Assembly (NCBI GenBank): GCA_038228545.1 | Contig: JBBRPE010000001.1 | Span: forward strand, 110,924-174,923 | Reading direction: 5' to 3' | Origin: Minisyncoccia bacterium | GTDB taxonomy: Bacteria > Patescibacteriota > Minisyncoccia > Phycocordibacterales > Phycocordibacteraceae | Length of the DNA stretch: 64,000 bases | In this document: one piece after another, positions 3,510-33,591 of the stretch | Layout: every line of letters begins with the position of its first letter | Numbering within the stretch: position 1 is the stretch's first letter | The notes under the pieces: model-generated | What the model saw: the letters and a program-made list of their open reading frames with translations, nothing else | Database searches by the model: none | What the model was told of the DNA's origin: nothing | Translations under genes and position numbers: made by a program

Positions 3510-4718
3510 GGCCTCGAGTATGCGGGTTACGGCAAGCGCATACGCAGCTTCGCGAAGCGTGATGTTTCGTTCTGCGGCGAAGTCCGCGACGTCGCGATAC
3601 GCATCTTCCATAGTGGTCTTTAGACGCTCTTCCACTTCTGCCCGCGTCCACGTTTCCCCTGACTTGTTTTGAAGCCATTCGAAATACGAAACGGTTACGC
3701 CACCGGCGTTCGCAAGCACATCAGGAATGACGATAATACCGTTCTCTGTGAGCGCCGCATCAGCTATAGGTGTCACCGGACCGTTCGCTATTTCAAGCAC
3801 GACGCCTGCCTGTACGCGCCCAACATTGTCGTCGCGTATCTGTTCCTCGAGTGCTGCAGGGATGATGATATCGGCCGGAATGGTGAAAATGGAATCGGCA
3901 GGAAGCTTCTCGCCTTCTGCTTCGTGTACGGAACCTTTTTCTTCTTTCACAGAAAGCACATGCTCAACATCAAGACCCTTCGGATTTGCGATTGTGCCGT
4001 GCGAATCCGCAATGGCAACAACGCGAGCGCCGCTTTGTGCAAGCAGGCGTGCTGCCTGTGCACCAGCATTCCCTGCTCCCTGAACACTTGCAGTGAGATT
4101 CTCGAGCGAACGATGCTGATCGCGCAGAAGTGCATCAAGTACTATGACTGCGCCGTCTGCTGTCGCTGTGTCGCGGCCTTCGCTTCCACCCTTATCAAGT
4201 GGCTTCCCCGTAATGAATGCGGGCGACGGCTTCCCGGTGATTTTTTCATATTCGTCGAGCATGACCGCCATGATTTCAGGAGTCGTGTACACATCAGGTG
4301 CAGGCACGTCTACGTCTGGTCCGAGGTGGTCGGCAAATGCTCGCACAAAAGCACGTGCCACTTCATGTATTTCATTCTTTGAATGCGTGCGTGGGTCAAA
4401 CGCAACACCGCCCTTCGCGCCACCGAATGGAATGTCTACAACGGCACACTTAATAGCCATCATCGCGGCAAGCGCCGAGACCTCGTCTTCGTCTGCGTCC
4501 GGATGGAAACGAATACCACCCTTGTAGGGTCCACGAGCATTATTAAACTGCACGCGATACGCAGGATACGTAGCGGTGCTTCCGTCGTCGCGCGTAATAG
4601 TCAGGTCTGCCTTGAGCACGCGGTCAGGTGTTTCAAGACGCGCACGGTCTTCTTCTGAAAGCCCGAGGAGCTCTGCTGCTCGGTCCATATTCTGCTTGAA
4701 GTATTCAAATGCGGCCAT
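3507..4718 (-). CDS. gdhA: Glutamate dehydrogenase (Glu/Leu/Phe/Val dehydrogenase family)
   Basis: 403 aa; GGIRFHPDADEDEV...VDIPFGGAKGG motifs and NAD(P) Rossmann GAGNAG. Confidence 0.9.
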   Translation of the reverse strand: MAAFEYFKQNMDRAAELLGLSEEDRARLETPDRVLKADLTITRDDGSTATYPAYRVQFNNARGPYKGGIRFHPDADEDEVSALAAMMAIKCAVVDIPFGGAKGGVAFDPRTHSKNEIHEVARAFVRAFADHLGPDVDVPAPDVYTTPEIMAVMLDEYEKITGKPSPAFITGKPLDKGGSEGRDTATADGAVIVLDALLRDQHRSLENLTASVQGAGNAGAQAARLLAQSGARVVAIADSHGTIANPKGLDVEHVLSVKEEKGSVHEAEGEKLPADSIFTIPADIIIPAALEEQIRDDNVGRVQAGVVLEIANGPVTPIADAALTENGIIVIPDVLANAGGVTVSYFEWLQNKSGETWTRAEVEERLKTTMEDAYRDVADFAAERNITLREAAYALAVTRILEA

Positions 4719-4980
4719 ATTCTTCTCTGGTGACTGCTATCAGAGAATCTTACGCCTCTCCAGGAATCGGTCTATGGGGATAGCTTCGCTCGGGGTAGTA
4801 AGAATCTCCGCAACTTCGACACTCACGTGTCGCACTTCACATAGTCCCCTCGTAGCGAAAACTCCCTAAAGCACTTCGTTAGTCGGGAGTTTTCTCCTCG
4901 GCTCATTGTGAAGTTGCTCTGCGTTCGGAATAGCGGATATTCTTTACTACCCATCGCTACGCGAGAAACGGAAGGAGTTT

Positions 4981-5147
4981 GTGTGGATGAAGGAAATTAA
5001 CTGGAAGCAGCCGAAGCGGAAAGAGTTTTGGAAAGAAATAGCCGACCGAGGTCCTCGAGTGGCGGTATTTCTTGAACGAAAGGACTATCCGCTTCGTGTC
5101 GCCCTGGAACGCCGGAGTTTTCCGTCATCCGCGCACACGAGTGTAGC
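4981..5147. repeat. Copy 1 of a duplicated ~150-170-nt non-coding element with terminal inverted repeats, starting 10 nt after the smc stop codon
   Basis: ~125-nt core (5001-5125, ctggaagcagccgaagc...ccggagttttcc) ~88% identical to 24750-24875; ends GTGTGGATGAAGG / CCGTCATCCGCGCACAC are inverted repeats; no conserved ORF. Confidence 0.7.
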
Positions 5148-7379
5148 CTATTTTGCGACCGCAGCAGCTTCTTCAAATTTAACTGAAAGTAGTTTACTGA
5201 TACCATCCGCGCCCATAGTGACGCCGTAGAGTATTCCGGCGCGCGACATAGTCTCGCGGTTGTGGGTGATGACGATGAGCTGGGATTTCTTGGCAAGCTC
5301 TTCAATCATGTCGCCGTAACGGCGCGAGTTTGCCTCGTCGAGTGCTGCGTCCGTCTCGTCGAGTATGAGGAACGGTGGCGGATTCACCTGACTCATAGCA
5401 AAAATAAGTGCGATAGACGTAAGTGCACGCTCACCGCCAGAAAGTTGCATGAGTGACTGCACGCGCTTCTTCGGCAAATGTACGGAAATTTCAATACCGG
5501 GCTTGCCCTGCTTCTTTGTTTTCTTCCCTGATATTTCTTCGTCTTCGTAGGTTTCGTCTTCATCGTCTTCCTCAATAGCATCCTGTTCCTCAAGGATGAG
5601 CTTTGCGCCACCGCCGCCAAACATAATGCCAAAGTATTCGCCGAAGGAATGATTTACCTGCGCGAGACCTTCAGCGAACGTTTTTGTAAGTTCGTCGTCG
5701 AGGTCAGTAATAAGTCCTGCCAAGCCCTCTGCAGACTTTGCGAGGTCTGCAAGCTCGCGTGCAAGAAATTCTTCGCGTTCGGTTGCTTCCGTGTATTCTC
5801 GCTTTACATCTTCACCAGTGCCGCCCGCTTCTTCCACACGAATCTTGAGACGTTCGAGAGTACGCTTTCGCATCTCCTGCACGGAACGCTCTTCGCTCGA
5901 TATTTCTTCCTGTTCATGATTAAACGCACTCGCTCCTGCAAGCGAGAGTACTTCCGCCCTATCGCGCTCAAGTTCGTCCGCGAGACTCTGGAGCTCGCGC
6001 ACACGGTAGTCTTCGCGAGCAACACTTCCTTCTTCACGGGCTTTCGTTTCTGCAAGTCCGAGGATGCGTCGCTTTTCTTCGCGGCCAGTCTCTTCATAGG
6101 CAAGTGCCGTCTCACGCGCTTTCATAAGCACGCTACGCGCCTTCTCGACAGCACCCTCGAGCTCGGCGTCCTTCTTCATGAGCTCGGTACGCTCGTTCTC
6201 GAGCTGATAGACCGTATTCTCCTCATCCTTGAGATAGTCGTCGTTTGGAGCCGCGTAACGGTCAAAGAAGGCAGCAACAGCAGCACGTAGTCCTTGGAGG
6301 GCTGCACGTATCGCGCCTGGTTCCGCCTGTTCCGTTTCGACAATCTTGGACTGTTTCTCCACTTCTTCGCGAAGCGTAGAGAGATCCTCACGGGTGACTT
6401 TCACGTACGGCTCGCGCGCGATAGCCGCCGTGCGTTTCTTTGCTTCATGGAGCCCGCCTTCGATGCGACCTATCTCGCGGGAAAGCGTGGAGCGTTCGCT
6501 CCCGATACGATCCACCTCACGCTCAGCCATTCGAATAGCTTCACTACGCTTCATACTCTCAGAGTCGCCGGTAACACCCTCGTCAAAGACTGCAAGTTCA
6601 GCGCTTGCGGTCGCGAGCTTCTCTGCTGCCACCATCTTGCGCTTAGCGGCATGCTCACGCTCCGACTCAATGTAGTTTTCCTCGACAGCGAAGTAGGTGC
6701 GAGCGAGCGATGCGAGCTCGTTCATGAGTTCTTCCGCGCGCTCTACCTTCTCTACTTGTTTCTGAAGGAAGCGGATGTGCGGAGCTATCTCTCGCCTAAG
6801 TGCTTCTACCTCACGGACATTATCCTGCGTGCGATCGAGTTTGCGTTCTGCTTCCTGTTTCTTGAATTCAAAAACTTTCAGACCAAGTGCATCTTCGAGC
6901 ATGGCGCGCCGCTCACGCGGATGTGCAAGCAAGATGCGGTCTGCCCCCCCCTGCGAGATGATGTGATGGCCTGTTTCGCCGATATTTGCTGACGCGAGAA
7001 GTTCCTGCACATCGCGCAAACGTACCTTCGAGCCGTTGATGAGGTATTCGGAAGACCCGTCTCGGAAAACAGCACGCTCAATCGTGACTTCCTCAAAGTC
7101 GAGCTTCGGGAATATGCGCTTGCGGTTATCGAATACGATAGCAACGGATGCGCGGTTGGAACGTGGTGTGGAATTAGACCCGCTCCATATAAGGTCTTCA
7201 CTGCGCTTGCCGCGCATGGATTTCATAGACTGTTCGCCAAGAGCAAAGCGGAACGCTTCAGCGACATTTGATTTACCCGAACCATTAGGCCCCACTATCG
7301 AAGTGGTTGCATTAGAAAAATCCAGAATCGTCTTTTTCGCGAACGATTTAAAGCCGACTATCTCGAGCCGTTTCAACAT
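5148..7379 (-). CDS. smc: SMC-family chromosome segregation ATPase (short, ~743 aa)
   Basis: N-terminal Walker A MLKRLEIVGFKSF...GPNGSGKSN, long coiled-coil middle, C-terminal signature LSGGERALTSIALIFA...LDETDAALD; start taken at ATG 7379 (ORF track extends to 7439). Confidence 0.8.
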   Translation of the reverse strand: MLKRLEIVGFKSFAKKTILDFSNATTSIVGPNGSGKSNVAEAFRFALGEQSMKSMRGKRSEDLIWSGSNSTPRSNRASVAIVFDNRKRIFPKLDFEEVTIERAVFRDGSSEYLINGSKVRLRDVQELLASANIGETGHHIISQGGADRILLAHPRERRAMLEDALGLKVFEFKKQEAERKLDRTQDNVREVEALRREIAPHIRFLQKQVEKVERAEELMNELASLARTYFAVEENYIESEREHAAKRKMVAAEKLATASAELAVFDEGVTGDSESMKRSEAIRMAEREVDRIGSERSTLSREIGRIEGGLHEAKKRTAAIAREPYVKVTREDLSTLREEVEKQSKIVETEQAEPGAIRAALQGLRAAVAAFFDRYAAPNDDYLKDEENTVYQLENERTELMKKDAELEGAVEKARSVLMKARETALAYEETGREEKRRILGLAETKAREEGSVAREDYRVRELQSLADELERDRAEVLSLAGASAFNHEQEEISSEERSVQEMRKRTLERLKIRVEEAGGTGEDVKREYTEATEREEFLARELADLAKSAEGLAGLITDLDDELTKTFAEGLAQVNHSFGEYFGIMFGGGGAKLILEEQDAIEEDDEDETYEDEEISGKKTKKQGKPGIEISVHLPKKRVQSLMQLSGGERALTSIALIFAMSQVNPPPFLILDETDAALDEANSRRYGDMIEELAKKSQLIVITHNRETMSRAGILYGVTMGADGISKLLSVKFEEAAAVAK

Positions 7380-7493
7380 TACGAAAAGTATACCGCATCG
7401 AACTCTCTCAGAGATAGCGCTGGAACGAGTATTTCCCAAATAAAAGAATTTCTAGAAATCGGAGGCTCTTGTATGTTGAAGATACAAGCGTAC

Positions 7494-8181
7494 CTACCAG
7501 CCCATCTTGTCGAGTGCAGCTTGTGCAGCATCCTGCTCTGCCTCTTGCTTACTCTTCCCTGCTCCGCGTGCGAATTCTTCTTCACCCAAAAATGCACCTA
7601 CCGTAAAGACTCGGTCATGATCCGGACCTTCTTCAGAAAGTGTCTTGTAGGACGGTGTGATGCTTTTCTTTTCCTGACCTGCTTCCTGGAAGCGGCTCTT
7701 TGCATCCTGGTACCCCTTGTTCTCGATTATGGAATCAATCTTTGGATAAAGCGTGCGTGCAACGAACGCTTCGGCCGCTTCGTAGCCCTGGTCCAAGTAG
7801 ATGCTTCCAAGTACTGCTTCAAAGGCATTCGCAAGGATAATGTCGCGTGCACGACCAGTGTCCTTCGCTTCACCTTTCGAAAGAAGGAGCATGTCGTTAA
7901 GACCAAGGAGCTTTGCACTTTCCGCGAGAGAGACGGTGTTCACAAGTGCGGCACGATACGCCGTGAGATCGCCCTCCGGCTTCATTGGAAATTTATTGAA
8001 AAGGTAGTGCGTGCTTGCGAGCTCGAGCACGGCATCACCGAGAAATTCGAGGCGTTCGTTGTGCGGTCCTGTCGCCTTATGCTCATTTAAATAGGAACGA
8101 TGCGTAAGCGCCTCGACCAGTAAGTCGAGGTTTTTGTAGCTAAGCCCCAGCTGGGCTGCGTATCCGCTGAATTCCGCCATA
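7494..8181 (-). CDS. rnc: Ribonuclease III
   Basis: RNase III signature HRSY...NERLEFLGDAVLEL plus C-terminal dsRBD; start at MAEFSG (ATG 8181; ORF track extends to 8240). Confidence 0.9.
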
Positions 8182-8428: not shown

Positions 8429-9331
8429 TTACGAGGAACGCGGTCGGTCGAGGAGTTTTTGGACGGCCGCAGTGACAATCGGAAGCATGTCGTCATAGAA
8501 GTTCAAATCGAGTATGTCGGGAAGACGGAACCACTTTGCATCATCGAGTCCACCGCTTTTTTTAAGCGTTAGCGTTTCAAACTCCGTCGAGACTAGGAAG
8601 AAATACACGTGCTTGCGTATCTTTCCCTTTTCCGGATGCGAGGCGACATATTCGTTCTCGCCAATCTGGTCTTCTACTTTGACGTTCATAAGCCCAAGCT
8701 CTTCGCCCACAACACGCGCCACGCCCACTTCCGGAGTTGGGTCTCCTTCTATATGACCCTTTGAGAGCGTCCAGCGCCCGAAGATGTCATGCACCAGCGC
8801 GAGGTAGTACTGGCCATCATGGAGTGCGTACACGATTGCGCCACCAAGCTTTTCAAGAGGAAGGTCTTCGCGCTTCACACGATCCTTCTTCCCTATCTCG
8901 TCTTTACCCGGTTCACCGAGCTCTTTGTAGACCGCACCGAGAACGCCGTTTACGAAACGACCCGAAGAGTCACCGCCGAATACCTTTGCAAGTTCAATTG
9001 CTTCGTTTATAGCTACCTTTGCCGGTACCTGCGTACGGTCAGCAAAAAGAAGTTCATAAAGCCCGATACGGAGTATGTTGCGATCAACTGGCGCAATCTT
9101 ATCGAGCGGCCAATCAGGCGCGGCTTTCTCAATGACCATATCAAGGTCGGGCTTTTTGGCGAGTACGCCATCGAGGAGAGTTTTCATAAAAGGCTGGTCG
9201 GTATCATCGCCGCCGAACTCGTCGACGTTGCGTGCGAGCATTTCTGCTGCACCTTTTGCGTCGGCACTAGTTGTGTCCCACTCAAAGAGTGTTTGCAAAA
9301 CTACCGAACGTGCTAGATGCCTGTTGGCCAT
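8429..9331 (-). CDS. nusB: NusB antitermination domain fused to a C-terminal NUDIX-like hydrolase domain
   Basis: N-terminus RHLARSVVLQTLFEWD...NRILRIGLYELLF...AINEAIELAKVFGG...FVNGVLGAVYKEL (NusB); C-terminus GHIEGDPTPEVGVARVVGEELGL (degenerate Nudix box); 300 aa versus ~140 for NusB alone. Confidence 0.75.
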   Translation of the reverse strand: MANRHLARSVVLQTLFEWDTTSADAKGAAEMLARNVDEFGGDDTDQPFMKTLLDGVLAKKPDLDMVIEKAAPDWPLDKIAPVDRNILRIGLYELLFADRTQVPAKVAINEAIELAKVFGGDSSGRFVNGVLGAVYKELGEPGKDEIGKKDRVKREDLPLEKLGGAIVYALHDGQYYLALVHDIFGRWTLSKGHIEGDPTPEVGVARVVGEELGLMNVKVEDQIGENEYVASHPEKGKIRKHVYFFLVSTEFETLTLKKSGGLDDAKWFRLPDILDLNFYDDMLPIVTAAVQKLLDRPRSS

Positions 9332-9554
9332 ATGAAAGAGCTGTATGAGTAGGATACCCTACTTTGGAAAAGTGCATTGCACTCATGCAATGCATCATGT
9401 GTATATCGAAAGGAAACAAAACGGAGAAAATCGAAACGGAACGAGTACTCCGCGAAAGCACGCTGTTCCGAAGACAGAGTAGTTTTGCGCAGAGTCGAGA
9501 AGAACTATCCCGACTACTGAAGCGCTTTAGGGATAGTTCGATATGAGACGACAA

Positions 9555-9582
9555 CGCAAAACCCGACATCTGAGTGTCGGGC
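9555..9582 (-). terminator. Rho-independent terminator after rpmF
   Basis: Minus strand: hairpin CCCGACACUCAGAUGUCGGG followed by UUUUG. Confidence 0.55.
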
Positions 9583-9612
9583 TGTGTGCTTTCTCGGAGT
9601 GCGAGTGGAGCG

Positions 9613-9975
9613 TTATACGCCCCCGCCGAAACCGGAACGTGACTTTGCCTTTCCGAGAGTCATGCGTCCGATAAGTCCCTGCTTCTTTTCACGTTCCTCT
9701 GTTGCCGTGTGCTTCTCGGGAGTCATGTTGGTGTTCGCTGCTTCTACCTTGTCGTGCTCCTTCTTTGCCTTGTCTTTCTTCTTCTGTTCAACTGCTTTCA
9801 CTTCCTTCTTGGAAACGATTTGAACGCCACGGTACATGCCCGTAGTCTCATCGATGCGGTGCGGAAGACGGAGTGCTCCGGACTCTTTGTCGACAACGAC
9901 GTTAGTCCCCGCAAGCGCATGGTGGCTGCGGCGGTTCTTGGTGTGCGAACTGGTGTGGCGCATTCGTACTGACAT
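9613..9975 (-). CDS. rpmF: 50S ribosomal protein L32 with long K/E-rich C-terminal extension
   Basis: From ATG 9975: MSVRMRHTSSHTKNRRSHHALAGTNVVVDKESGALRLPHRIDETTGMYRG matches L32 pattern (RRSHxAL...DK.SG...HR...GxYRG); ORF track N-terminal extension disregarded. Confidence 0.8.
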   Translation of the reverse strand: MSVRMRHTSSHTKNRRSHHALAGTNVVVDKESGALRLPHRIDETTGMYRGVQIVSKKEVKAVEQKKKDKAKKEHDKVEAANTNMTPEKHTATEEREKKQGLIGRMTLGKAKSRSGFGGGV

Positions 9976-9989
9976 AGTGGGAATACCGT

Positions 9990-10335
9990 ACCATATGGCC
10001 TTATATATGGCTAGAGCACCCCTTTTCCTTGTTATACGGCCCAGATAGTGCAAGGATTACTAGGTCGCCTTTGTGTGCTGAGCGGGACCTCAGCCGGGCG
10101 ATAATCCGAACGGTCTCTACGACCTTGTACCAATCCGGAATTTTTGGGAAATACCGGATGCACATCCAACAGAATTCCATGAACGTTTCTGCTGCTCGCC
10201 GCAAGGGGAGCAAACGAAAACGGGCCTGGCCGTACCGTCGAGATGGGTAGCTTAGCTCTATGAGCTGCCTCACAACCCGCGCCACCCAGGCGCACACACA
10301 GTCCTAATCTCGGAACATCTGTTCTTGACCCTGGA
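9990..10335 (+). ncRNA. Candidate non-coding RNA of unidentified family, ending in a strong terminator
   Basis: ~390 nt without convincing ORF between divergent rpmF start and rnhB stop; plus-strand intrinsic terminator at 10336-10370; internal hairpins such as ATCCGG..CCGGAT. Confidence 0.3.
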
Positions 10336-11015: not shown

Positions 11016-14000
11016 ATGACGAAGAGCGTACCAAATAGTCCCGAGATACTAGGCACGGGTGAGCTTGCGAGCGAGGCGTATAGCAATACGGTGAGCGAGA
11101 AAGCTGGGGCCCGCAACAACGTAGATGGGGTCGATTTGAAACGTTCTAAATTCGTACACCTCCATACGCATTCCCACTACTCCTTCCTTCAGGCACTACC
11201 GAAAGTGCCCGCTCTCGTGAAGGCGGCAGTAGCGGCTGATATGCCGGCACTTGCGCTTACGGACGTGGCGAATCTCCACGGTGCCGTGGAGTTCTACCAG
11301 GCGTGCGAGAAAGCGAAGTTAAAAGCGATTATCGGCGTGGATACCTATATTGCGCAACGTTCGCGTTTTGATAAGAATCCGGGAGACGAGGGAAAGCGTT
11401 CACATCTCGTTCTTCTTGCGGAAACGAATGAGGGCTATCGAAACCTTATGGTGCTCGTCACGAAAGCTTTCACCGAAGGCATGTTCGACAAGCCACGTAT
11501 CGATAAAGAGCTCTTACGCGAACACAAAGGCGGACTTATCGCTCTGATGCCGTCTTTCGCAGGAGAAGTCGCGCAGTATCTCAAAGCCGGAGACGTGAAG
11601 GGAGCCGGAGCCGCACTGGCTGAATACGTCAGCATCTTTGGAACAGAAAATGTGTTCCTTGAAATTACCCACCACCCGAAAGTCGATGGGCACGAAAAGC
11701 GCATGGAACAGATTAAAGAGCTTTCGTTACAGTCCGGTATTCCACTTGTCGCTCAACATGACGTGTACTACCTGAAGCCCTCCGACCGCGAAGCAACTGA
11801 GGTCATGCGTCGTATTGCGCACGGCTCAGAAGGTCGTAACGAGGAAGAGGATTTCTCATTTGTAAGTGAGGAACAGATGCGAAAGTGGTTCAAGGACATA
11901 CCCGACGCGGTTGACCGTTCCGGAGAAATTGCTGAGCGCTGTACCGTCACTATGGAGCTCGGGAGCTGGAACTTCCCCGCTGTTGAAACGGAGCCCGGCA
12001 AAACGCATGAGCAGATGCTCCGTGAACGCACGTATGGAGGACTCAGCATGCGCGGTATGGAAAAGACGGACGTTGTTGAAAAACGCATCGAATACGAGCT
12101 CGATGTCATCATCGGTAAGGGCTTCGCTCCCTACTTCCTCGCCGTGTCTGACCTACTCACCTTTGCGAAGAGCGAGGGTATTTTGACGACAACTCGCGGC
12201 TCAGCGGCTGGTTCGTTGGTGTCGTATCTCACGGGTATCACAAACGTTGACCCGCTTTTCTACAAGCTTCCATTCGAACGCTTCCTCAACCCCGAGCGCC
12301 CCAAAGCGCCTGATATCGACATGGACTTCGCTGACAACAGACGCGACGAGATGATTGCGTATGCAAAGCGTAAATATGGCGAGGATAAGGTTGCGCAGAT
12401 AGGCACCTTCGGCACCATGATGGCGCGTGCCGCCGTGCGCGACGTCGCGCGAGCTCTCGGGCATGCGTATAGGACCGGCGACCAAATTGCGAAACTCATA
12501 CCACTCGGTAGTCAGGGTTTCCCGATGACCATTGAACGCGCGCTTGAACTTGAGCCAGAGTTAAAACTTCTCTATGACCAGGATGACGACGCACGCCAAG
12601 TCATCGACCTTGCTCGTCAAATGGAAGGCTGTGTTCGCCATACCGGTGTGCACGCCGCGGGTGTCGTAATTGCACCGACGCCACTCACTGACTGGACACC
12701 GCTTCAGGTGGACCCGAAGACCGGCAAACTTATTACGCAGTACGACATGCATGCGGTGGAAGATGCGGGTCTTCTTAAGTTCGATTTCCTCGGCATTAAG
12801 AACCTCGCCATTCTCTCGGACGCCATTGCGCGCGTACAAAAAGACCGCGGCATCTTTATTGATATTGAAAACATTCCGATAGACGACGCAAAAACGTTTG
12901 CCATGCTCGCGCGCGGTGAGACGGAAGGTACATTCCAACTCAATGGCTCCGGCATGACGCGCTATCTGAAAGAACTACAGCCGACTTCGATTCATGATAT
13001 CAACGCGATGGTGGCGCTCTATCGCCCTGGTCCGATGGAAACGATTCCGCAATATATTGAGCGCAAGAAAAATCCGAAGCTTATCCGCTTCCTGGACCCA
13101 CGCATGGAAGACTACCTCGATGCATCCTACGGGCTCTTGGTGTATCAGGACGATGTGCTCCTGACTGCCATCAAACTTGGAGGCTACTCGTGGCTTGAAG
13201 CCGACACACTCCGTAAGGCTATGGGTAAGAAGATTCCGGCGGAGATGGAAGCGCAGAGAGAAAAACTTCTAAAAGGGTTCCAGGAGTTCGGAAAGATTTC
13301 AAAGGAGAAGGGCGATGCACTCTGGAAGCTCATTGAGCCGTTCGCTGCGTACGGATTTAATAAGGCCCACGCTGCCTGCTACGGCAAGGTTGCCTACCAA
13401 ACCGCCTACATGAAGGCTAATTACCCAGTCGAGTATATGGCGGCGGTGCTTACTGCGGATGCCGGTGACACGGAAAGCATCGCGACATTTGTTGCCGAGT
13501 GCGAACGTATGAAGATTCCCGTGCTTCCGCCAGACGTAAACGAAAGCGGTAGCGATTTCACGGTGGCAGGAGAAAAAGGCGACACGATTCGTTTCGGACT
13601 CACGACGATTAAGAACTTCGGCGAGGGAATCTCCGAAGCACTCCAGACCGAACGGACAAAGAACGGTCCCTTCACCGACCTGTCTGATTTCCTTTCGCGT
13701 ATTTCGTCCCGTAACCTCAATCGCAAATCACTCGAGTGTCTTATAAAATCAGGGGCGCTCGACCGATTTGCGGACCCGACGGGCGGACGCTCGCACCTTA
13801 TGAGTCACATCGAAACACTACTCACCTTCCACAAGGACGCCACAGTAGAAGCCCCACAAGATTCGCTGTTCGGTGCAGGGCTCTTTGCAGCTCCGAAGCT
13901 CACACTTCCTGCGGCAGATGTTTCGACAACACTATCCGACAAACTCGCGTGGGAAAAGGAGTTGCTTGGTATTTACGTATCCGGCCATCCACTCGATAGC

Positions 14001-23359: not shown

Positions 23360-24613
23360 GTGGTAATAAGTACGCATATGGAAACGACCCAGAATCACCC
23401 CCAGGTACAGACGACTAAGCGCGCTGCCGTAGGCGGCCTCGCAGTCGTCGGCTTTGTAGCGCTTATTCTTATTGGCATTGCAACTGCAATTTACGCAGCA
23501 TCCTTCCTTCCGAAGGCGTTCTCGAAGCTCTCTTCGGCAAACGTGTTCCTTTCGGGAATTGCCCAGCCAAACGACAACAATCAGCTCCAGGTGGTACAGC
23601 CAACAAACACCACGCCGGCTCCGACCTCTATTGTGCTTTCACCAGCAACCACGACCAACACTGTTATCACTCCTATCTATACACCTCCAGCACCGACCCC
23701 GACGTACACTGCTCCAGCGCCAAAGCCGACCTATACCGCTCCAGCAACACCGACGTACCATGTTGTCGCAGTTCCTGCTTCAACCAACTACACCGGACTT
23801 CCTGATCTTACGACGTCCATCATGTCGGTTGGGTACCTCCGCAACAACGGAGACACCAATTCCTTCGTCGCGGCTAATACCGTGCCAACGGGGCTTCAGG
23901 GTGCTGTTCGCTTCTCTATAGCTAACCGCGGAACAAACGTCTCTGCTCCATTTATCTTTGAGGCAAACATTCCAAGCGGCAACAGCTCAACGGTCTATCG
24001 TTCCCCATCTGAGCGTGCGCTCAATCCAGGCGATAGCGTTATCTTTACGCTCGGCTTCGACTCTACTCAGAGCGGAAGTCAGAACCTTCGTGTGACTGTT
24101 GATCCAAGCAACTACATTGCTGAATCAAACGAAAGCAACAACACTGGTACCGCTACTATTTACCTCAGTGGCAACTACAACAACTCGAATAACAATTCGA
24201 ACAACAACTCAAGTCAGTACGACAGCAACGGTACCTACTGTACGTACGGAACGTACTACTCAAATAGTCGTTACTACTGCAACTCAAGCTACAACGGTAA
24301 CAACAATTCGAATTCGAACACCAGCTCGTACGACAGCAATGGTCAGTATTGTACCTACGGGACGTACTCCTCAAGCGGTCGTTACTACTGCAACTCAAGC
24401 TACAACAGTAACGGTAACAACAATTCGAATCAGAACGATATCAACGGTCGCAATTGCCTCTACGGTACTTCCTACAGCAACGGTCAGTACTACTGCAACG
24501 CAAATACATACACTAATACTAATACCAACACCGGCAACAGTCAGTACGACAGCAACGGTCAGTATTGTGCCTACGGGACGTACTACTCGAACAATCGCTA
24601 TTACTGCTCCTAA
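23360..24613 (+). CDS. Membrane-anchored surface protein: N-terminal TM, Pro/Thr-rich linker, CARDB-like domain, C-terminal N/S/Y-rich tandem repeats
   Basis: CARDB-like ending ...NLRVTVDPSNYIAESNESNN; 4x repeat YDSNGxYCxYGTYYSNxRYYCNSSYN. Confidence 0.75.
   Translation: MVISTHMETTQNHPQVQTTKRAAVGGLAVVGFVALILIGIATAIYAASFLPKAFSKLSSANVFLSGIAQPNDNNQLQVVQPTNTTPAPTSIVLSPATTTNTVITPIYTPPAPTPTYTAPAPKPTYTAPATPTYHVVAVPASTNYTGLPDLTTSIMSVGYLRNNGDTNSFVAANTVPTGLQGAVRFSIANRGTNVSAPFIFEANIPSGNSSTVYRSPSERALNPGDSVIFTLGFDSTQSGSQNLRVTVDPSNYIAESNESNNTGTATIYLSGNYNNSNNNSNNNSSQYDSNGTYCTYGTYYSNSRYYCNSSYNGNNNSNSNTSSYDSNGQYCTYGTYSSSGRYYCNSSYNSNGNNNSNQNDINGRNCLYGTSYSNGQYYCNANTYTNTNTNTGNSQYDSNGQYCAYGTYYSNNRYYCS
24212..24610 (+). 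repeat. Tandem direct repeats (~108-111 nt, 4 copies) encoding the N/S/Y/C-rich C-terminal repeats
   Basis: agtcagtacgacagcaacggt...cgttactactgcaactcaagctacaac recurring at 24212, 24323, ~24430, 24539. Confidence 0.7.
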
Positions 24614-24667: not shown

Positions 24668-24702
24668 ATGAAGAAGCCCCGCATACCGCAGGGCTTCTTC
24701 AT
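24668..24702. terminator. Terminator hairpin after the CARDB/NSY-repeat gene
   Basis: atgaagaagccc-cgcataccgcag-ggcttcttcat (11-bp stem) followed by TTT. Confidence 0.5.
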
Positions 24703-24726
24703 TTCACCCCCCTATCATGGAGTGAG

Positions 24727-24897
24727 TGTGTGTGAATACCAGGAATAAGCTGAAAGCAGCCGAAGCATAACGAGTTGAGGAAAGAAATATCCGACCGAGG
24801 TCCTCGAGTGGCGGTATTTCTTGAACGAAACGACTATATGCTTCGTGCGCCCTGGAACGCCGGAGTCTTCCTGGCATTCACACACACGAACGAAACC
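24727..24897. repeat. Copy 2 of the duplicated non-coding element with terminal inverted repeats, starting 10 nt after the gyrB stop codon
   Basis: Core 24750-24875 ~88% identical to 5001-5125; flanking inverted repeats GTGTGTGTGAATACC / GGCATTCACACACAC. Confidence 0.7.
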
Positions 24898-26994
24898 TTA
24901 AATATCCAGATTCGCCATCCGCGCGTTCGATTGAATGAACGACTTACGACTAGCAACGTCCGTACCCATGAGTACATCGAAGATGCGGTCCGCCTCCGCG
25001 GCATCATCCACCGTAACGCGCTTCAGTATGCGCTTACTCGGGTCCATGGTGGTCTCCCAGAGCTCGGACGGATTCATCTCTCCAAGACCTTTGTAACGCT
25101 GAATGGTTATCTTTTGCGACTTTGCAGGCTTCCCTTTTGTGTTTGTTTCCGCTTCAGCCGCCGCTTCTTCGGCTTCTACTTCTTCATCGGTCGCATCCGC
25201 TTCATTTACCACAAGGTCTGCGTCTTTGCCGAGAATCTGAGCCTTTTCTTCATCCGTATAGGCATACAGGATTTCCTTACCGCGCTTAATCTTGTAGAGC
25301 GGTGGCTGTGCAATATACACAAACCCTCCATCAATAACCTGACGGAAGTGACGGAAGAAGAGTGTGAGCAGGAGCGTGCGAATATGGGCTCCGTCCACGT
25401 CGGCGTCAGTTGCAATAATCACTTTGTGATAGCGAAGCTTCGTAATATCAAAGATGTCCCCGATAGCAGTACCCATGGCAATAACGAGATTCTTAATCTG
25501 TTCAGACGCAAGCATCTTATCAAGGCGAGCGCGTTCAATATTTAAAATCTTGCCGCGAAGCGGAAGAATGGCCTGCGTACGTCGGTCACGTCCCATTTTC
25601 GATGAGCCACCTGCCGAGTCTCCCTCCACAATGAAAAGTTCGCTCTCAGATGCATCCTTGGTCTGACAGTCAGCCAGCTTACCCGGAAGGGTCATGCCCT
25701 CAAGGGCACCCTTACGGAGCACCGAGTCTTTTGCAGCCTTTGCGGCCTTACGAGCCTTAAGGGCGAGCAGGACTTTATTTACAATTGCCTTGGCGTCGTC
25801 CGGATTCTCTTCAAGGAACGAGGAGAATGCGGTGCCGAAGACTGTCGCGGTTGCACCCTGCGCTTCGGTTGAGCCGAGTTTACCCTTGGTCTGACCTTCG
25901 AACTGAATCTCCGGCATCTTTATAGAAATAACTGCTGTGATACCTTCGAGGACATCATCACCCGTGAAGTTCTCCTCGCTTTCTTTGAGGATACCTGCGG
26001 AACGACCGTAGGAATTGAGCGTACGCGTGAGCGCTGTCTTGAAGCCGGTTACGTGCGTACCTTGTTCCGGATTGTAAATATTATTGGCGAATGCGAGCAG
26101 GCGCGGTGACAAATCATCCGTGTATTGAAGTGCGACTTCGACCGCGACATCATTCTCGCTCGAATCAACGTAGAAAATATTCTTGTGGGCGACCGTCTGG
26201 TGCTTGTTGTAAAACCCAATGAGCGAGCGCAGACCACCTTCAAAGAAGAAGGTCATGGACGGCACCTCAAGGCCGAGGTTGCGTGCGTAGAACTCGTTCT
26301 CAGAGTCCACCATGCCCGCTTCGCGTGCATCGATAACGGTAATACGCGTACCCTTCACGAGGTAGGCCTGCTGACGCAGATGCGAGACAATCTTGTCCCA
26401 ATTCCAAGTGATGCCTTCCTTGAAGATAGTGACGTCCGGCTTGAAAAAGACGATGGAGCCCTGGTGCGACGTCTTTCCAATCGGCTTAACCTTCGCAAGC
26501 GCTTTACCTATCTTGTATTCCTGCATGTGCATGACGCCGTCTTTGTGCACAATGACTTTCGTGTGCTCAGAGAGCGCGTTCACCACAGATGCGCCCACAC
26601 CGTGAAGACCACCCGAGACTTTGTACCCGGAATCTTCCCCGCCGAACTTACCGCCGGCATGCAGCGTGGTCATGATGGTCTCGAGTGCTGAGACTTTGGT
26701 CTTTGGGTGGATACCGACCGGAATACCGCGACCGTTATCCGTGACGCGTACGTAGCCGCCCGGAAGCAACACTACTTCGATATCATCCGCGAACCCACCC
26801 ATCGCTTCGTCGCGAGAGTTATCGAAGATTTCCCAGATGAGATGGTGAAGACCATCGGGTCCGGTAGTACCGATGTACATGCCCGGGCGCTTGCGGACCG
26901 GTTCGAGGCCCTCGAGGACGGTGATGCTAGAGGCATCATATTCGCCGCCTTTTGAGGCAGCTTTTTTCGCTATAGGAGCCACTTTCTTAGCCAT
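24898..26994 (-). CDS. gyrB: DNA gyrase subunit B
   Basis: GHKL ATPase motifs (LHHLIWEIFDNSRDEAMGG, DNGRGIP), TOPRIM, C-terminal ...SNARMANLDI; start at MAKKVAP (ATG 26994). Confidence 0.95.
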   Translation of the reverse strand: MAKKVAPIAKKAASKGGEYDASSITVLEGLEPVRKRPGMYIGTTGPDGLHHLIWEIFDNSRDEAMGGFADDIEVVLLPGGYVRVTDNGRGIPVGIHPKTKVSALETIMTTLHAGGKFGGEDSGYKVSGGLHGVGASVVNALSEHTKVIVHKDGVMHMQEYKIGKALAKVKPIGKTSHQGSIVFFKPDVTIFKEGITWNWDKIVSHLRQQAYLVKGTRITVIDAREAGMVDSENEFYARNLGLEVPSMTFFFEGGLRSLIGFYNKHQTVAHKNIFYVDSSENDVAVEVALQYTDDLSPRLLAFANNIYNPEQGTHVTGFKTALTRTLNSYGRSAGILKESEENFTGDDVLEGITAVISIKMPEIQFEGQTKGKLGSTEAQGATATVFGTAFSSFLEENPDDAKAIVNKVLLALKARKAAKAAKDSVLRKGALEGMTLPGKLADCQTKDASESELFIVEGDSAGGSSKMGRDRRTQAILPLRGKILNIERARLDKMLASEQIKNLVIAMGTAIGDIFDITKLRYHKVIIATDADVDGAHIRTLLLTLFFRHFRQVIDGGFVYIAQPPLYKIKRGKEILYAYTDEEKAQILGKDADLVVNEADATDEEVEAEEAAAEAETNTKGKPAKSQKITIQRYKGLGEMNPSELWETTMDPSKRILKRVTVDDAAEADRIFDVLMGTDVASRKSFIQSNARMANLDI

Positions 26995-27075
26995 ATTCGT
27001 AGATAGAGTATACCACAATTCAAACCCGTGCGGAGCCGACATTAAGCGACTTTTCTGACGCGCTACAATAGGCCT

Positions 27076-33515: not shown

Positions 33516-33591
33516 GCCGCCTTAGCTCAGTTGGTAGAGCAACACTTTTGTAAAGTGAAGGTCCCCAGTTCGAGCCTGGGAGGCGGCTCCA
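33516..33591 (+). tRNA. tRNA-Thr (anticodon UGU), CCA encoded
   Basis: Cloverleaf by hand: acceptor GCCGCCT/AGGCGGC, D-arm GCTCAGTTGGTAGAGC, anticodon loop TTTGTAA, T-arm CCCAGTTCGAGCCTGGG, discriminator T, CCA. Confidence 0.85.

Follow-up and report, generated by a model that had tools for sequence, protein, structure and literature searches.

Here we describe a family of structured elements found in a 64,000-nucleotide stretch of contig JBBRPE010000001.1 from a Minisyncoccia bacterium (hereafter, the window). Each member is approximately 165 to 180 nucleotides in length, and all members genuinely share one four-helix fold composed of a closing stem (P1), a junction motif, a rod formed by stems P2 and P3, and a hairpin (P4), bounded by a 5′ leader and a 3′ tail. 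The stems covary, whereas the loops and the motifs at the foot of the closing stem are conserved. Copies occupy either the short gap between a stop codon and a terminator or the gap between two convergent genes. The window holds at least four copies, only two of which are similar to each other. Of the intergenic DNA in the window, roughly 4 kb in all, about 0.7 kb belongs to the family, which fills the largest intergenic gaps of a very compact genome in which nearly all of the genes scanned have housekeeping functions. The copies and their immediate neighbors are as follows.

24717 to 24897, plus strand: copy 2 (A2), an entire A-type element from leader to tail; covariance-model match of 142 to 202 bits, minimum free energy (MFE) of -74.7 kcal/mol, z = -6.7
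24898 to 27042, minus strand: gyrB, a 714-codon open reading frame (ORF) convergent with copy 2, assigned from Pfam and homologs
24668 to 24702, strand unassigned: terminator-type hairpin between a CARDB-domain gene and copy 2, recognized from sequence
4965 to 5147, plus strand: copy 1 (A1), an A-type element whose tail extends up to the smc stop codon (CTA, 5148 to 5150)
4783 to 4967, minus strand: element B, a B-type member that is head-to-head with copy 1, with about 24 nt separating the 5′ ends
5148 to 7439, minus strand: gene for an smc-like ATPase, convergent with copy 1, assigned from Pfam SMC_N and homologs
9433 to 9612, plus strand: element C, a B-like member whose tail extends up to the rpmF (L32) stop codon; z = -6.1
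9613 to 10053, minus strand: rpmF (ribosomal protein L32), convergent with element C, assigned from Pfam L32p

Copy 2 lies between the terminator-type hairpin and the gyrB stop codon, and element B is located 66 nt upstream of a glutamate dehydrogenase (GDH) gene. The two A-type copies are about 90% identical by mean column identity, or 80% when the leader and tail are counted, and the 24-mer CCGACCGAGGTCCTCGAGTGGCGG is exact in both. Their end sequences are nonetheless different. Specifically, copy 2 starts with GTGTGTGTGAATACC at 24727 and ends with GGCATTCACACACAC at 24873 to 24887, whereas copy 1 starts with GTGTGGATGAAGG at 4981 and ends with CCGTCATCCGCGCACAC at 5122 to 5138. A preliminary description of copy 2 had proposed that the ends differ between copies and yet stay complementary within each, and this is borne out by the RNAalifold consensus of the two. 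Among its 53 pairs, five are changed on both sides with pairing kept, three are changed on one side (G.U to A-U type), and none is broken. Two of the double changes fall in the closing stem, two in P2 (CGAAGCGGA/UCCGCUUCG in copy 1 versus CGAAGCAUA/UAUGCUUCG in copy 2), and one deeper inside. The differences between the copies lie mainly in covarying stems while the core is near-invariant (about 96% identical), which is a signature of constraint and not of recent copying. Each copy also folds far more stably than expected (z = -6.7 for copy 2 and -5.2 for copy 1), and no shuffled sequence out of 200 is equally stable. Against shuffles, element B yields z = -5.2 and element C z = -6.1.

The remaining members were recovered by covariance models. 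A model built from copies 1 and 2 only gave as its first matches element B (4785 to 4953, minus strand) and element C (9445 to 9609, plus strand), each with an E value near 1e-4. With this two-copy model, which includes neither, B scores 27 bits and C scores 24.9 bits; with the final model, of which both are training members, they reach 133 and 127 bits. Contigs of relatives were reached through GyrB homologs, and a model made from A1, B and C, without any relative in it, identifies two copies in the contig L029, namely E1 (B-type, 111 bits) and E2 (A-type, 71 bits), between gyrB and the following gene. An equivalent pair (F1 and F2) is present in L030 and a single B-type copy (G) in L031, and a scan of metagenome contigs with a loop pattern from B and C revealed the 3′ half of a further copy (D) beside recA in L026. 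The family therefore numbers at least 10 members, four in the window and six in related Paceibacteria contigs. It comes in two subtypes, A and B, that often form head-to-head pairs, as in the window (4783 to 5147), L029 and L030, with the heads of paired copies 24 to 46 nt apart. Copies A2, C and G are solo.

The final nine-sequence model finds no further copies in 257 kb of sequence from the window and its relatives. Scans of viral contigs returned no family member, and a scan of genome contigs with a 19-mer from the A-type core gave 22 matches that were all due to chance (19 to 27 nt, in unrelated GC-rich genomes). With Rfam 15, a single tRNA is the only sequence in the window to reach its gathering threshold, and scans of three element regions by E value (up to 5 to 10) produced chance-level matches only. 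The closest database match to GyrB is a 100%-identical protein from an NCBI contig of 175 kb; the matches that follow are at most 87% identical and are annotated as Patescibacteria or Paceibacterota. A search of the literature on structured RNAs or miniature inverted-repeat transposable elements (MITEs) of the candidate phyla radiation (CPR) found no relevant paper describing such elements. The best explanation is that the family is previously undescribed and occurs in one clade of Paceibacteria (Patescibacteria/CPR). One match of the covariance model, in L023, proved to be a tRNA and not a family member. This tRNA (6132 to 6235, minus strand) has an acceptor stem lengthened by a perfect 10-bp leader/trailer helix (UUUUGCGUGA / UCACGCAAAA), and it scored weakly with the element model owing to its four-way shape. 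The tRNA-Thr of the window (33516 to 33591) has no such helix extension.

The anatomy of the element, in the coordinates of copy 2, is as follows.

24717 to 24725, plus strand: 5′ leader AUGGAGUGA; consensus AACGRAGCGA across copies
24726 to 24744, plus strand: 5′ strand of the closing stem P1, previously described as the left terminal inverted repeat
24745 to 24760, plus strand: junction J1/2, motif C-Y-G-N-A-N-G-C-A-G (CUGAAAGCAG), single-stranded in the fold
24761 to 24769, plus strand: 5′ strand of P2 (CGAAGCAUA), whose partner is 24837 to 24845 (UAUGCUUCG)
24770 to 24781, plus strand: 5′ side of the internal loop (ACGAGUUGAGGA), with GUU-GA-G opposite C-GA-AAC at 24823 to 24836, which forms a second tandem G.A motif
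24782 to 24822, plus strand: stem P3 (24782 to 24792 with 24811 to 24822) and its apical part (24793 to 24810, GACCGAGGUCCUCGAGUG)
24850 to 24866, plus strand: small hairpin P4 (CCCUGGAACGCCGGAGU)
24869 to 24887, plus strand: 3′ strand of P1, previously described as the right terminal inverted repeat
24888 to 24897, plus strand: 3′ tail GAACGAAACC, up to the gyrB stop codon; family consensus GAGCGNA plus 2 to 4 nt

As the preliminary description had supposed, the two ends pair into a closing stem, which is the outermost helix of the conserved four-helix fold and covaries strongly across ten family members. This stem of about 20 bp has double-sided changes in 13 of 13 pairs, and 97% of its cells are paired. 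In MFE structures, the leader and tail extend it further. In copy 2, GU and GA of the leader face GA and AC of the tail to form tandem sheared G.A pairs plus two Watson-Crick pairs that lengthen P1. These Watson-Crick pairs covary in turn: most copies have GC/GC, whereas copy 2 has GU/AC and element C has AC/GU. Within junction J1/2, the C, G, A and CAG nucleotides are invariant in nine of nine copies. All nine pairs of P2 covary in the family, and the internal loop covaries as well, with GUU/AAC in A2 and GCC/GGC in the B-type members (GCC-GA-G opposite C-GA-GGC). P3 has double-sided changes in 10 of 16 pairs and an invariant cap (CCGAC...GG), and the apical loop takes the form of a small covarying hairpin in A-type copies and of GACUAGCGAAGCGCUUUA in B-type copies. 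P4 carries an invariant U.G pair beside an invariant G-C pair, each present in nine of nine copies. A K-turn reading of the G.A motifs was rejected for want of a 3-nt bulge. The many GGA motifs of copy 1, which might recall a CsrA sponge, are not conserved in the other copies.

In an alignment of the nine full-length copies that was fitted to the covariance model, 88.3% of cells pair, compared with 35 to 48% when partners are slid by one to three columns, and 36 of the 53 pairs show double-sided changes. None of 500 column shuffles reaches these values, and a six-copy version of the analysis also gave strong covariation. Set against the caveat that the alignment was fitted, B and C were found by a model that lacked them and the L029 copies by a model that lacked any relative. 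Aligned with their structures, the homologs thus conserve a common fold, and they display the structure and compensatory changes that characterize structured non-coding RNAs in general. One departure is seen in copy 1 (5021 to 5032 with 5074 to 5087), in which the inner tandem G.A motif is replaced by a change of GA to UU that gives U-A and U.G pairs. Either this inner motif is not strictly required, therefore, or copy 1 is degenerating.

The fold is biased toward one strand. In eight of nine copies, the MFE of the modeled (plus) strand is below that of the reverse complement, with a mean difference of about 5 kcal/mol and the largest differences in copy 1 (14.6 kcal/mol) and element C (9.1 kcal/mol). 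In addition, the cells of P1 through P3 contain about 10 G.U combinations for 1 A.C, and the U.G pair of P4 never varies. Together, these biases indicate selection on the fold of the modeled strand, as RNA or as single-stranded DNA, and not on that of its complement. It is the complementary strand that is present within the smc and rpmF mRNAs.

These data bear directly on the idea that the element serves in the mRNA of the gene whose stop codon it abuts, as a very stable hairpin located about 10 nt after the stop that protects the mRNA 3′ end or affects translation termination. Liang, Rudd and Deutscher are said to have described, in 2015, effects of this kind for repetitive extragenic palindromic (REP) sequences near stop codons in Escherichia coli. 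With nothing between it and the stop codon, the reverse complement of the element must be included in the smc, gyrB, rpmF and recA transcripts. Moreover, the element lies upstream of a terminator hairpin, and the reverse strand retains a fold of -53 to -78 kcal/mol. However, the opposite strand folds better in all but one of the nine copies, and the tenfold excess of G.U over A.C corresponds to A.C mismatches in the mRNA. The deficits are largest in A1 and C, which should be the clearest cases of such a 3′ untranslated element, and copies B, E2, F2 and G are not in the required orientation or position. The conserved asymmetric loops likewise suggest more than a hairpin made for stability, and we regard this explanation as quite improbable.

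If the folded strand is the functional one, it could also be an independently transcribed small RNA. The copies would then be paralogous trans-acting or antisense RNAs with 3′ ends that extend into those of the convergent genes smc, gyrB, rpmF and recA, which they would modulate by base pairing and RNase III cleavage. Conserved loops, covarying stems and purifying selection are properties of bona fide small RNAs, and an RNase III gene is present in the window. Furthermore, in A1, A2, C, E1, F1 and D, the folded strand runs antisense to the neighboring gene, and the tail extends as far as the stop codon of that gene. Most of these cases occur between convergent genes, however, where an element in any orientation is antisense to something, and B and G are in sense orientation. 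There is no conserved promoter or terminator, and the 24 to 46 nt between paired heads leave no room for two promoters. We therefore consider independent small RNAs unlikely. An intrinsic terminator was rejected as well, as the tail is GCGAGCGNA and not a U-tract and the terminator scan found none at the elements on the folded strand.

Orthologous copies reveal how strongly the family is maintained. The head-to-head pair of L029 is also present at the equivalent site in L030, and the GyrB proteins of the two are 95% identical. Whereas the four-fold sites of gyrB are 58% identical and the spacer between the elements 59%, E1 and F1 are 92% identical and E2 and F2 91%, with few differences, which lie in internal loops, exchange G.U for G-C, or delete a single base. 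Similarly, E1 and G are 80% identical compared with 55% at four-fold sites, and they differ by three compensatory pair changes in P1. Identities of 91 to 92% against 58% at four-fold sites imply purifying selection. A decaying selfish insertion would follow the neutral rate, which these copies do not.

The placement of the copies is equally distinctive. In six of 10 copies, only 0 to 4 nt separate the tail or leader from a stop codon, which belongs to gyrB in three cases and to smc, rpmF and recA in one case each. From the stem end to the stop codon, the distance is 9 nt in copy 1 (stem end 5138, CTA at 5148 to 5150 in smc) and 10 nt in copy 2 (stem end 24887, TTA at 24898 to 24900 in gyrB). 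The preliminary description took this conserved 10-nt offset as a sign of selection on position, for which our comparison offers a simpler cause. The 9 to 11 nt are the element's own conserved tail (CGARYGNA plus 2 to 4 nt), and the apparent offset arises from this tail and from the shortness of the gap between stop codon and terminator, whether the element inserted into that gap or the gap was compacted. Indeed, in L031 it is the 5′ leader and not the tail that abuts the stop. The GyrB C-terminus (...ANLDI or ...V before the stop) matches at every residue that of relatives without the element, and therefore the element sits 3′ of the original stop codon.

The number of copies and their sites differ between related genomes, and both orientations occur. 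At the 3′ gap of gyrB, only a 62-nt terminator hairpin is present in L023 and L024, and an unrelated ORF in L025. The same gap holds an A-type copy antisense to gyrB in the window, a B plus A pair in L029 and L030, and in L031 the B-type copy G, which is in the orientation opposite to E1 with its leader directly after the TAG. At the smc and rpmF sites, no family member occurs in four relatives of the clade (SMC proteins 82 to 84% identical; one is the L031 genome). The gap between rpmF and nusB is about 45 to 120 nt in three of these four relatives, and all four share a terminator-like hairpin; element C is inserted between the rpmF stop codon and this conserved hairpin. The hairpin itself (ACACACGAnGC...GUGUGU followed by U residues) recurs between rpmF and nusB in five genomes (window, about 9368 to 9408 on the minus strand, and L056 through L059), and is probably the rpmF terminator or a nusB leader. 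GC skew was compared with element orientation for a link to replication and gave no signal.

Several other features occur in or near these gaps. In L056, a different rod-like hairpin element of about 117 nt (7476 to 7592) directly follows the rpmF stop codon, in the same slot as element C, and lacks the leader, tail and loop motifs of the family. This element suggests that several families of hairpin elements use the gaps between stop codon and terminator in these genomes. In L025, an ORF of 174 aa is separated from the CARDB gene by a hairpin element of about 120 nt (6480 to 6601, z = -5); within the loops are GAACGAAA and GAGCGAAG, which resemble the family leader and tail, and it is not matched by the models. 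L030 has an extra insertion of about 58 nt (12095 to 12152) between the gyrB stop codon and F1, a hairpin with the loop GAGCGAAGCGAA. This loop motif is of the GCGAAGC type, as in the leader, the tail and the B-type apical loop. The CARDB-domain gene of the window (23360 to 24613, plus strand) has at its 3′ end near-repeated DNA that encodes repeats rich in N, S, Y, C and G (e.g., about 24340 to 24370 and 24550 to 24590). The gap between smc and the GDH gene is a variable hot spot in relatives (L057, 12257 to 12991; L058, 9294 to 9908 and 12278 to 12963), with a small UPF0150-like ORF in L057 and a 79-aa ORF plus 446 nt of non-coding DNA in L058, which also has a Mu Gam-like gene upstream of smc.

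Variation of this type invites comparison with mobile DNA. The preliminary description had left the choice between a structured RNA and a MITE; the structure is confirmed, and a classical MITE derived from a DDE transposon does not fit. The P1 sequences differ almost completely between the A, B, C and E types, orthologous copies are conserved, and no flanking direct repeat occurs at any of the 10 copies, in agreement with the earlier statement that no target-site duplication is evident. The GAGCG-like motifs on both sides of the elements are conserved between loci and thus belong to the element and not to a duplication. A search for additional copies, which that description had advised, did uncover relatives in both orientations, and in this the family resembles a dispersed repeat; the 64-kb window holds four copies, of which only two are similar, and none of the 10 known copies has target-site duplications.

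A stronger challenge comes from REP sequences and the composites that they form, bacterial interspersed mosaic elements (BIMEs) and REP doublets forming hairpins (REPINs), which in Proteobacteria are mobilized by REP-associated tyrosine transposases (RAYTs). By this account, the family is a non-autonomous mobile element whose single-stranded DNA fold and foot motifs (GCGA / GAGCG) are read by an enzyme encoded elsewhere, of HUH/Y1 type or similar, that cuts about 10 nt away from the stem on both sides and integrates the element anew with no duplication of the target, the RNA being a by-product. As with REP, BIME and REPIN sequences, the copies are extragenic, multiple, dispersed hairpins in both orientations at gene 3′ ends and in convergent gaps near stop codons. 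Their sites and copy number vary despite conserved gene order, with none in L023 or L025 or in the smc and rpmF regions of L056 through L059 (the gyrB hot spot of L057 through L059 was not sampled), and the gyrB 3′ hot spot holds different subtypes and orientations. Two subtypes that alternate head-to-head recall the Y and Z REPs of BIMEs, which also occur in alternating orientation. Inverted doublets are the unit of REPIN systems, and here head-to-head pairs occur alongside the solo copies A2, C and G. The strand-specific fold, the variable covarying stem with a short conserved foot motif, the sharp boundaries about 10 nt from the foot, the lack of target duplication and the different hairpin element in the post-rpmF slot of L056 all fit this account. 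Compensatory changes, moreover, are described as common in REPIN hairpins (PMC3116915).

Other observations are hard to reconcile with such mobility. No transposase, RAYT, reverse transcriptase or integrase was found in the 64-kb window or the fetched loci (about 320 kb; Pfam scans and locus tables), and Y1_Tnp is likewise absent from both. There is no conserved target tetranucleotide 5′ of the leader, unlike for IS200/IS605 elements. Copies are few and old, in place of hundreds that are almost identical, with the closest pair in the same genome 80 to 90% identical and its differences concentrated in covarying stems, and orthologous copies have been kept and conserved well past neutral divergence. 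Finally, REP sequences are simple palindromes of 20 to 40 nt. The element studied here, in a CPR host, has five times that length and a more complex form, in which a four-helix junction is combined with conserved internal and apical loops and with tandem G.A motifs. The definition of a REP as a palindrome with a conserved 5′ tetranucleotide does not apply, as no GTAG-type tetranucleotide is found and the foot motifs differ in kind. An element of this sort is thus possible, although we are inclined to doubt it.

Comparison with other known systems gives only partial matches. Integron attC sites also conserve structure over sequence, fold in a strand-specific manner, begin after a stop codon and have branched tips in their long versions. 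In contrast, the family has core housekeeping neighbors (gyrB, smc, rpmF, recA), no array, no integrase and extensive conserved internal sequence, and its ends (AACGRAGCGA ... GCGAGCGNA) lack the RYYYAAC / GTTRRRY core sites. Enterobacterial repetitive intergenic consensus sequences (ERIC, or intergenic repeat units, IRU), the Correia elements of Neisseria, the palindromic elements (RPEs) of Rickettsia and the pneumococcal BOX and RUP elements are intergenic repeats of 100 to 200 nt that are co-transcribed and form long hairpins. Their copies are similar in sequence and have conserved terminal inverted repeats, with TA duplications in the case of Correia elements. In the family described here, by contrast, the terminal stem varies, no duplication is seen, and orthologs are under purifying selection. 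Palindrome-associated transposable elements (PATEs) derived from IS200/IS605 share a strand-specific fold, the absence of target duplication and a fixed short distance to the hairpin foot. However, PATEs have separate hairpins at their left and right ends and insert 3′ of a fixed tetra- or pentanucleotide, whereas the ends of the family pair with each other. The sequences 5′ of the leader vary (GTAG, GCAC, GCAT, AATG, TCGA, GAGA, AAAT, TATC), which rejects an IS200/IS605-type element.

Among RNAs, 6S RNA is similar in length (about 170 to 185 nt), has ends that pair into a long stem and a central 5′ segment that is single-stranded and faces a small hairpin on the 3′ side, and combines low sequence conservation with conserved structure. 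Unlike 6S RNA, the family has no Rfam 6S match, at least four copies in 64 kb, and no copy at orthologous sites in close relatives. Hammerhead and twister-sister ribozymes, signal recognition particle (SRP) RNA, 6S RNA, Y RNA, retron msr-msd, bridge RNA and omega-RNA were set aside for want of either matching core motifs or the required partner gene, and no Rfam match was obtained. A protein-coding function was also rejected. Copy 2 does not preserve the 82-aa ORF that covers copy 1, as it has an in-frame TGA just upstream and a frame-shifting indel, and the substitutions preserve pairs and are not codon-like.

We tentatively favor the view that these sequences are a new family of single-strand-folded elements, probably RNA, that behave in the genome much like REP sequences and BIMEs and act locally at gene 3′ ends. 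The folded molecule would most likely be RNA carried within neighboring transcripts and not made from a promoter of its own, and it may serve, for example, in processing, in stability or as a barrier to read-through by incoming transcription. In convergent gaps, the forward-folded copy would be on the transcript of the opposite gene and would end at the stop codon of the gene it faces, an arrangement that would suit a barrier or processing module directed against invading transcription. New copies may arise by rare duplication or insertion into gaps between stop codon and terminator, with no involvement of a cut-and-paste transposase that recognizes terminal repeats. More speculatively, the variants at the gyrB site could be explained if recombination between the outward-facing tails were to invert a head-to-head pair (B leftward, A rightward), and if the loss of one partner after inversion then gave rise to the arrangements seen in the window and in L031.

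Several observations weigh against this favored view. For copies 1 and C, no gene is obvious upstream on the same strand. No conserved sigma-70-like promoter is found upstream of the leader, where the 24 to 46 nt head-to-head spacer is poorly conserved, and the terminator scan of the folded strand detected no U-tract 3′ of the closing stem, so that any independent expression of this strand is conjectural. In A1 and C, the folded strand is antisense to the mRNAs of smc and rpmF, but in L031 (G) it is in sense orientation after gyrB, and no single transcript context accounts for every copy. Only 10 copies are available, from about five genomes, and two DNA scans of the whole collection added at most one copy. 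Furthermore, the strand bias and the tandem G.A and GCGAAGC-type motifs are equally compatible with folded single-stranded DNA, in which motifs of the latter type are very stable. A broader formulation, which we judge possible but far from established, takes in both types of molecule. The elements would be strand-specifically folded modules of RNA or single-stranded DNA that are maintained by the host in this clade of Paceibacteria. They would lie where core genes such as gyrB, smc, rpmF and recA have their 3′ ends, in many cases as head-to-head A/B pairs that can invert, and would bind a factor through the tandem G.A and loop motifs. Such modules might function as transcription barriers or processing sites, or as substrates of an undescribed recombinase that reads structure.

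The elements also affect gene annotation. Mechanically derived ORFs of 57 to 95 codons run across them (4981 to 5229 on the plus strand, and 9282 to 9569 and 24704 to 24877 on the minus strand) and may be annotated as hypothetical proteins. L057 through L059 have small called genes (69 to 79 aa) directly after smc. The TAG of another ORF, of 24 codons, at 4709 to 4783 of the window (plus strand, MRPYSSLVTAIRESYASPGIGLWG and stop) is separated by a single base from the element B tail. This ORF, which overlaps the beginning of the GDH gene on the other strand, is probably due to chance. Because spurious ORFs are called across the elements, a covariance model for the family would clean up such annotation.

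The genomes of CPR bacteria, or Patescibacteria, are tiny and tightly packed, and their non-coding elements are hardly characterized. The covariation of this family, and its conservation well above the neutral level, indicate that its retention has a cost, borne either by the cell or by the element. If the folded molecule is RNA, the family would constitute a new class of structured RNA with two recognizable motifs for protein or tertiary contacts. If instead it is a single-stranded DNA element, it would extend the REP/REPIN phenomenon to a distant phylum, and with a far more elaborate fold.

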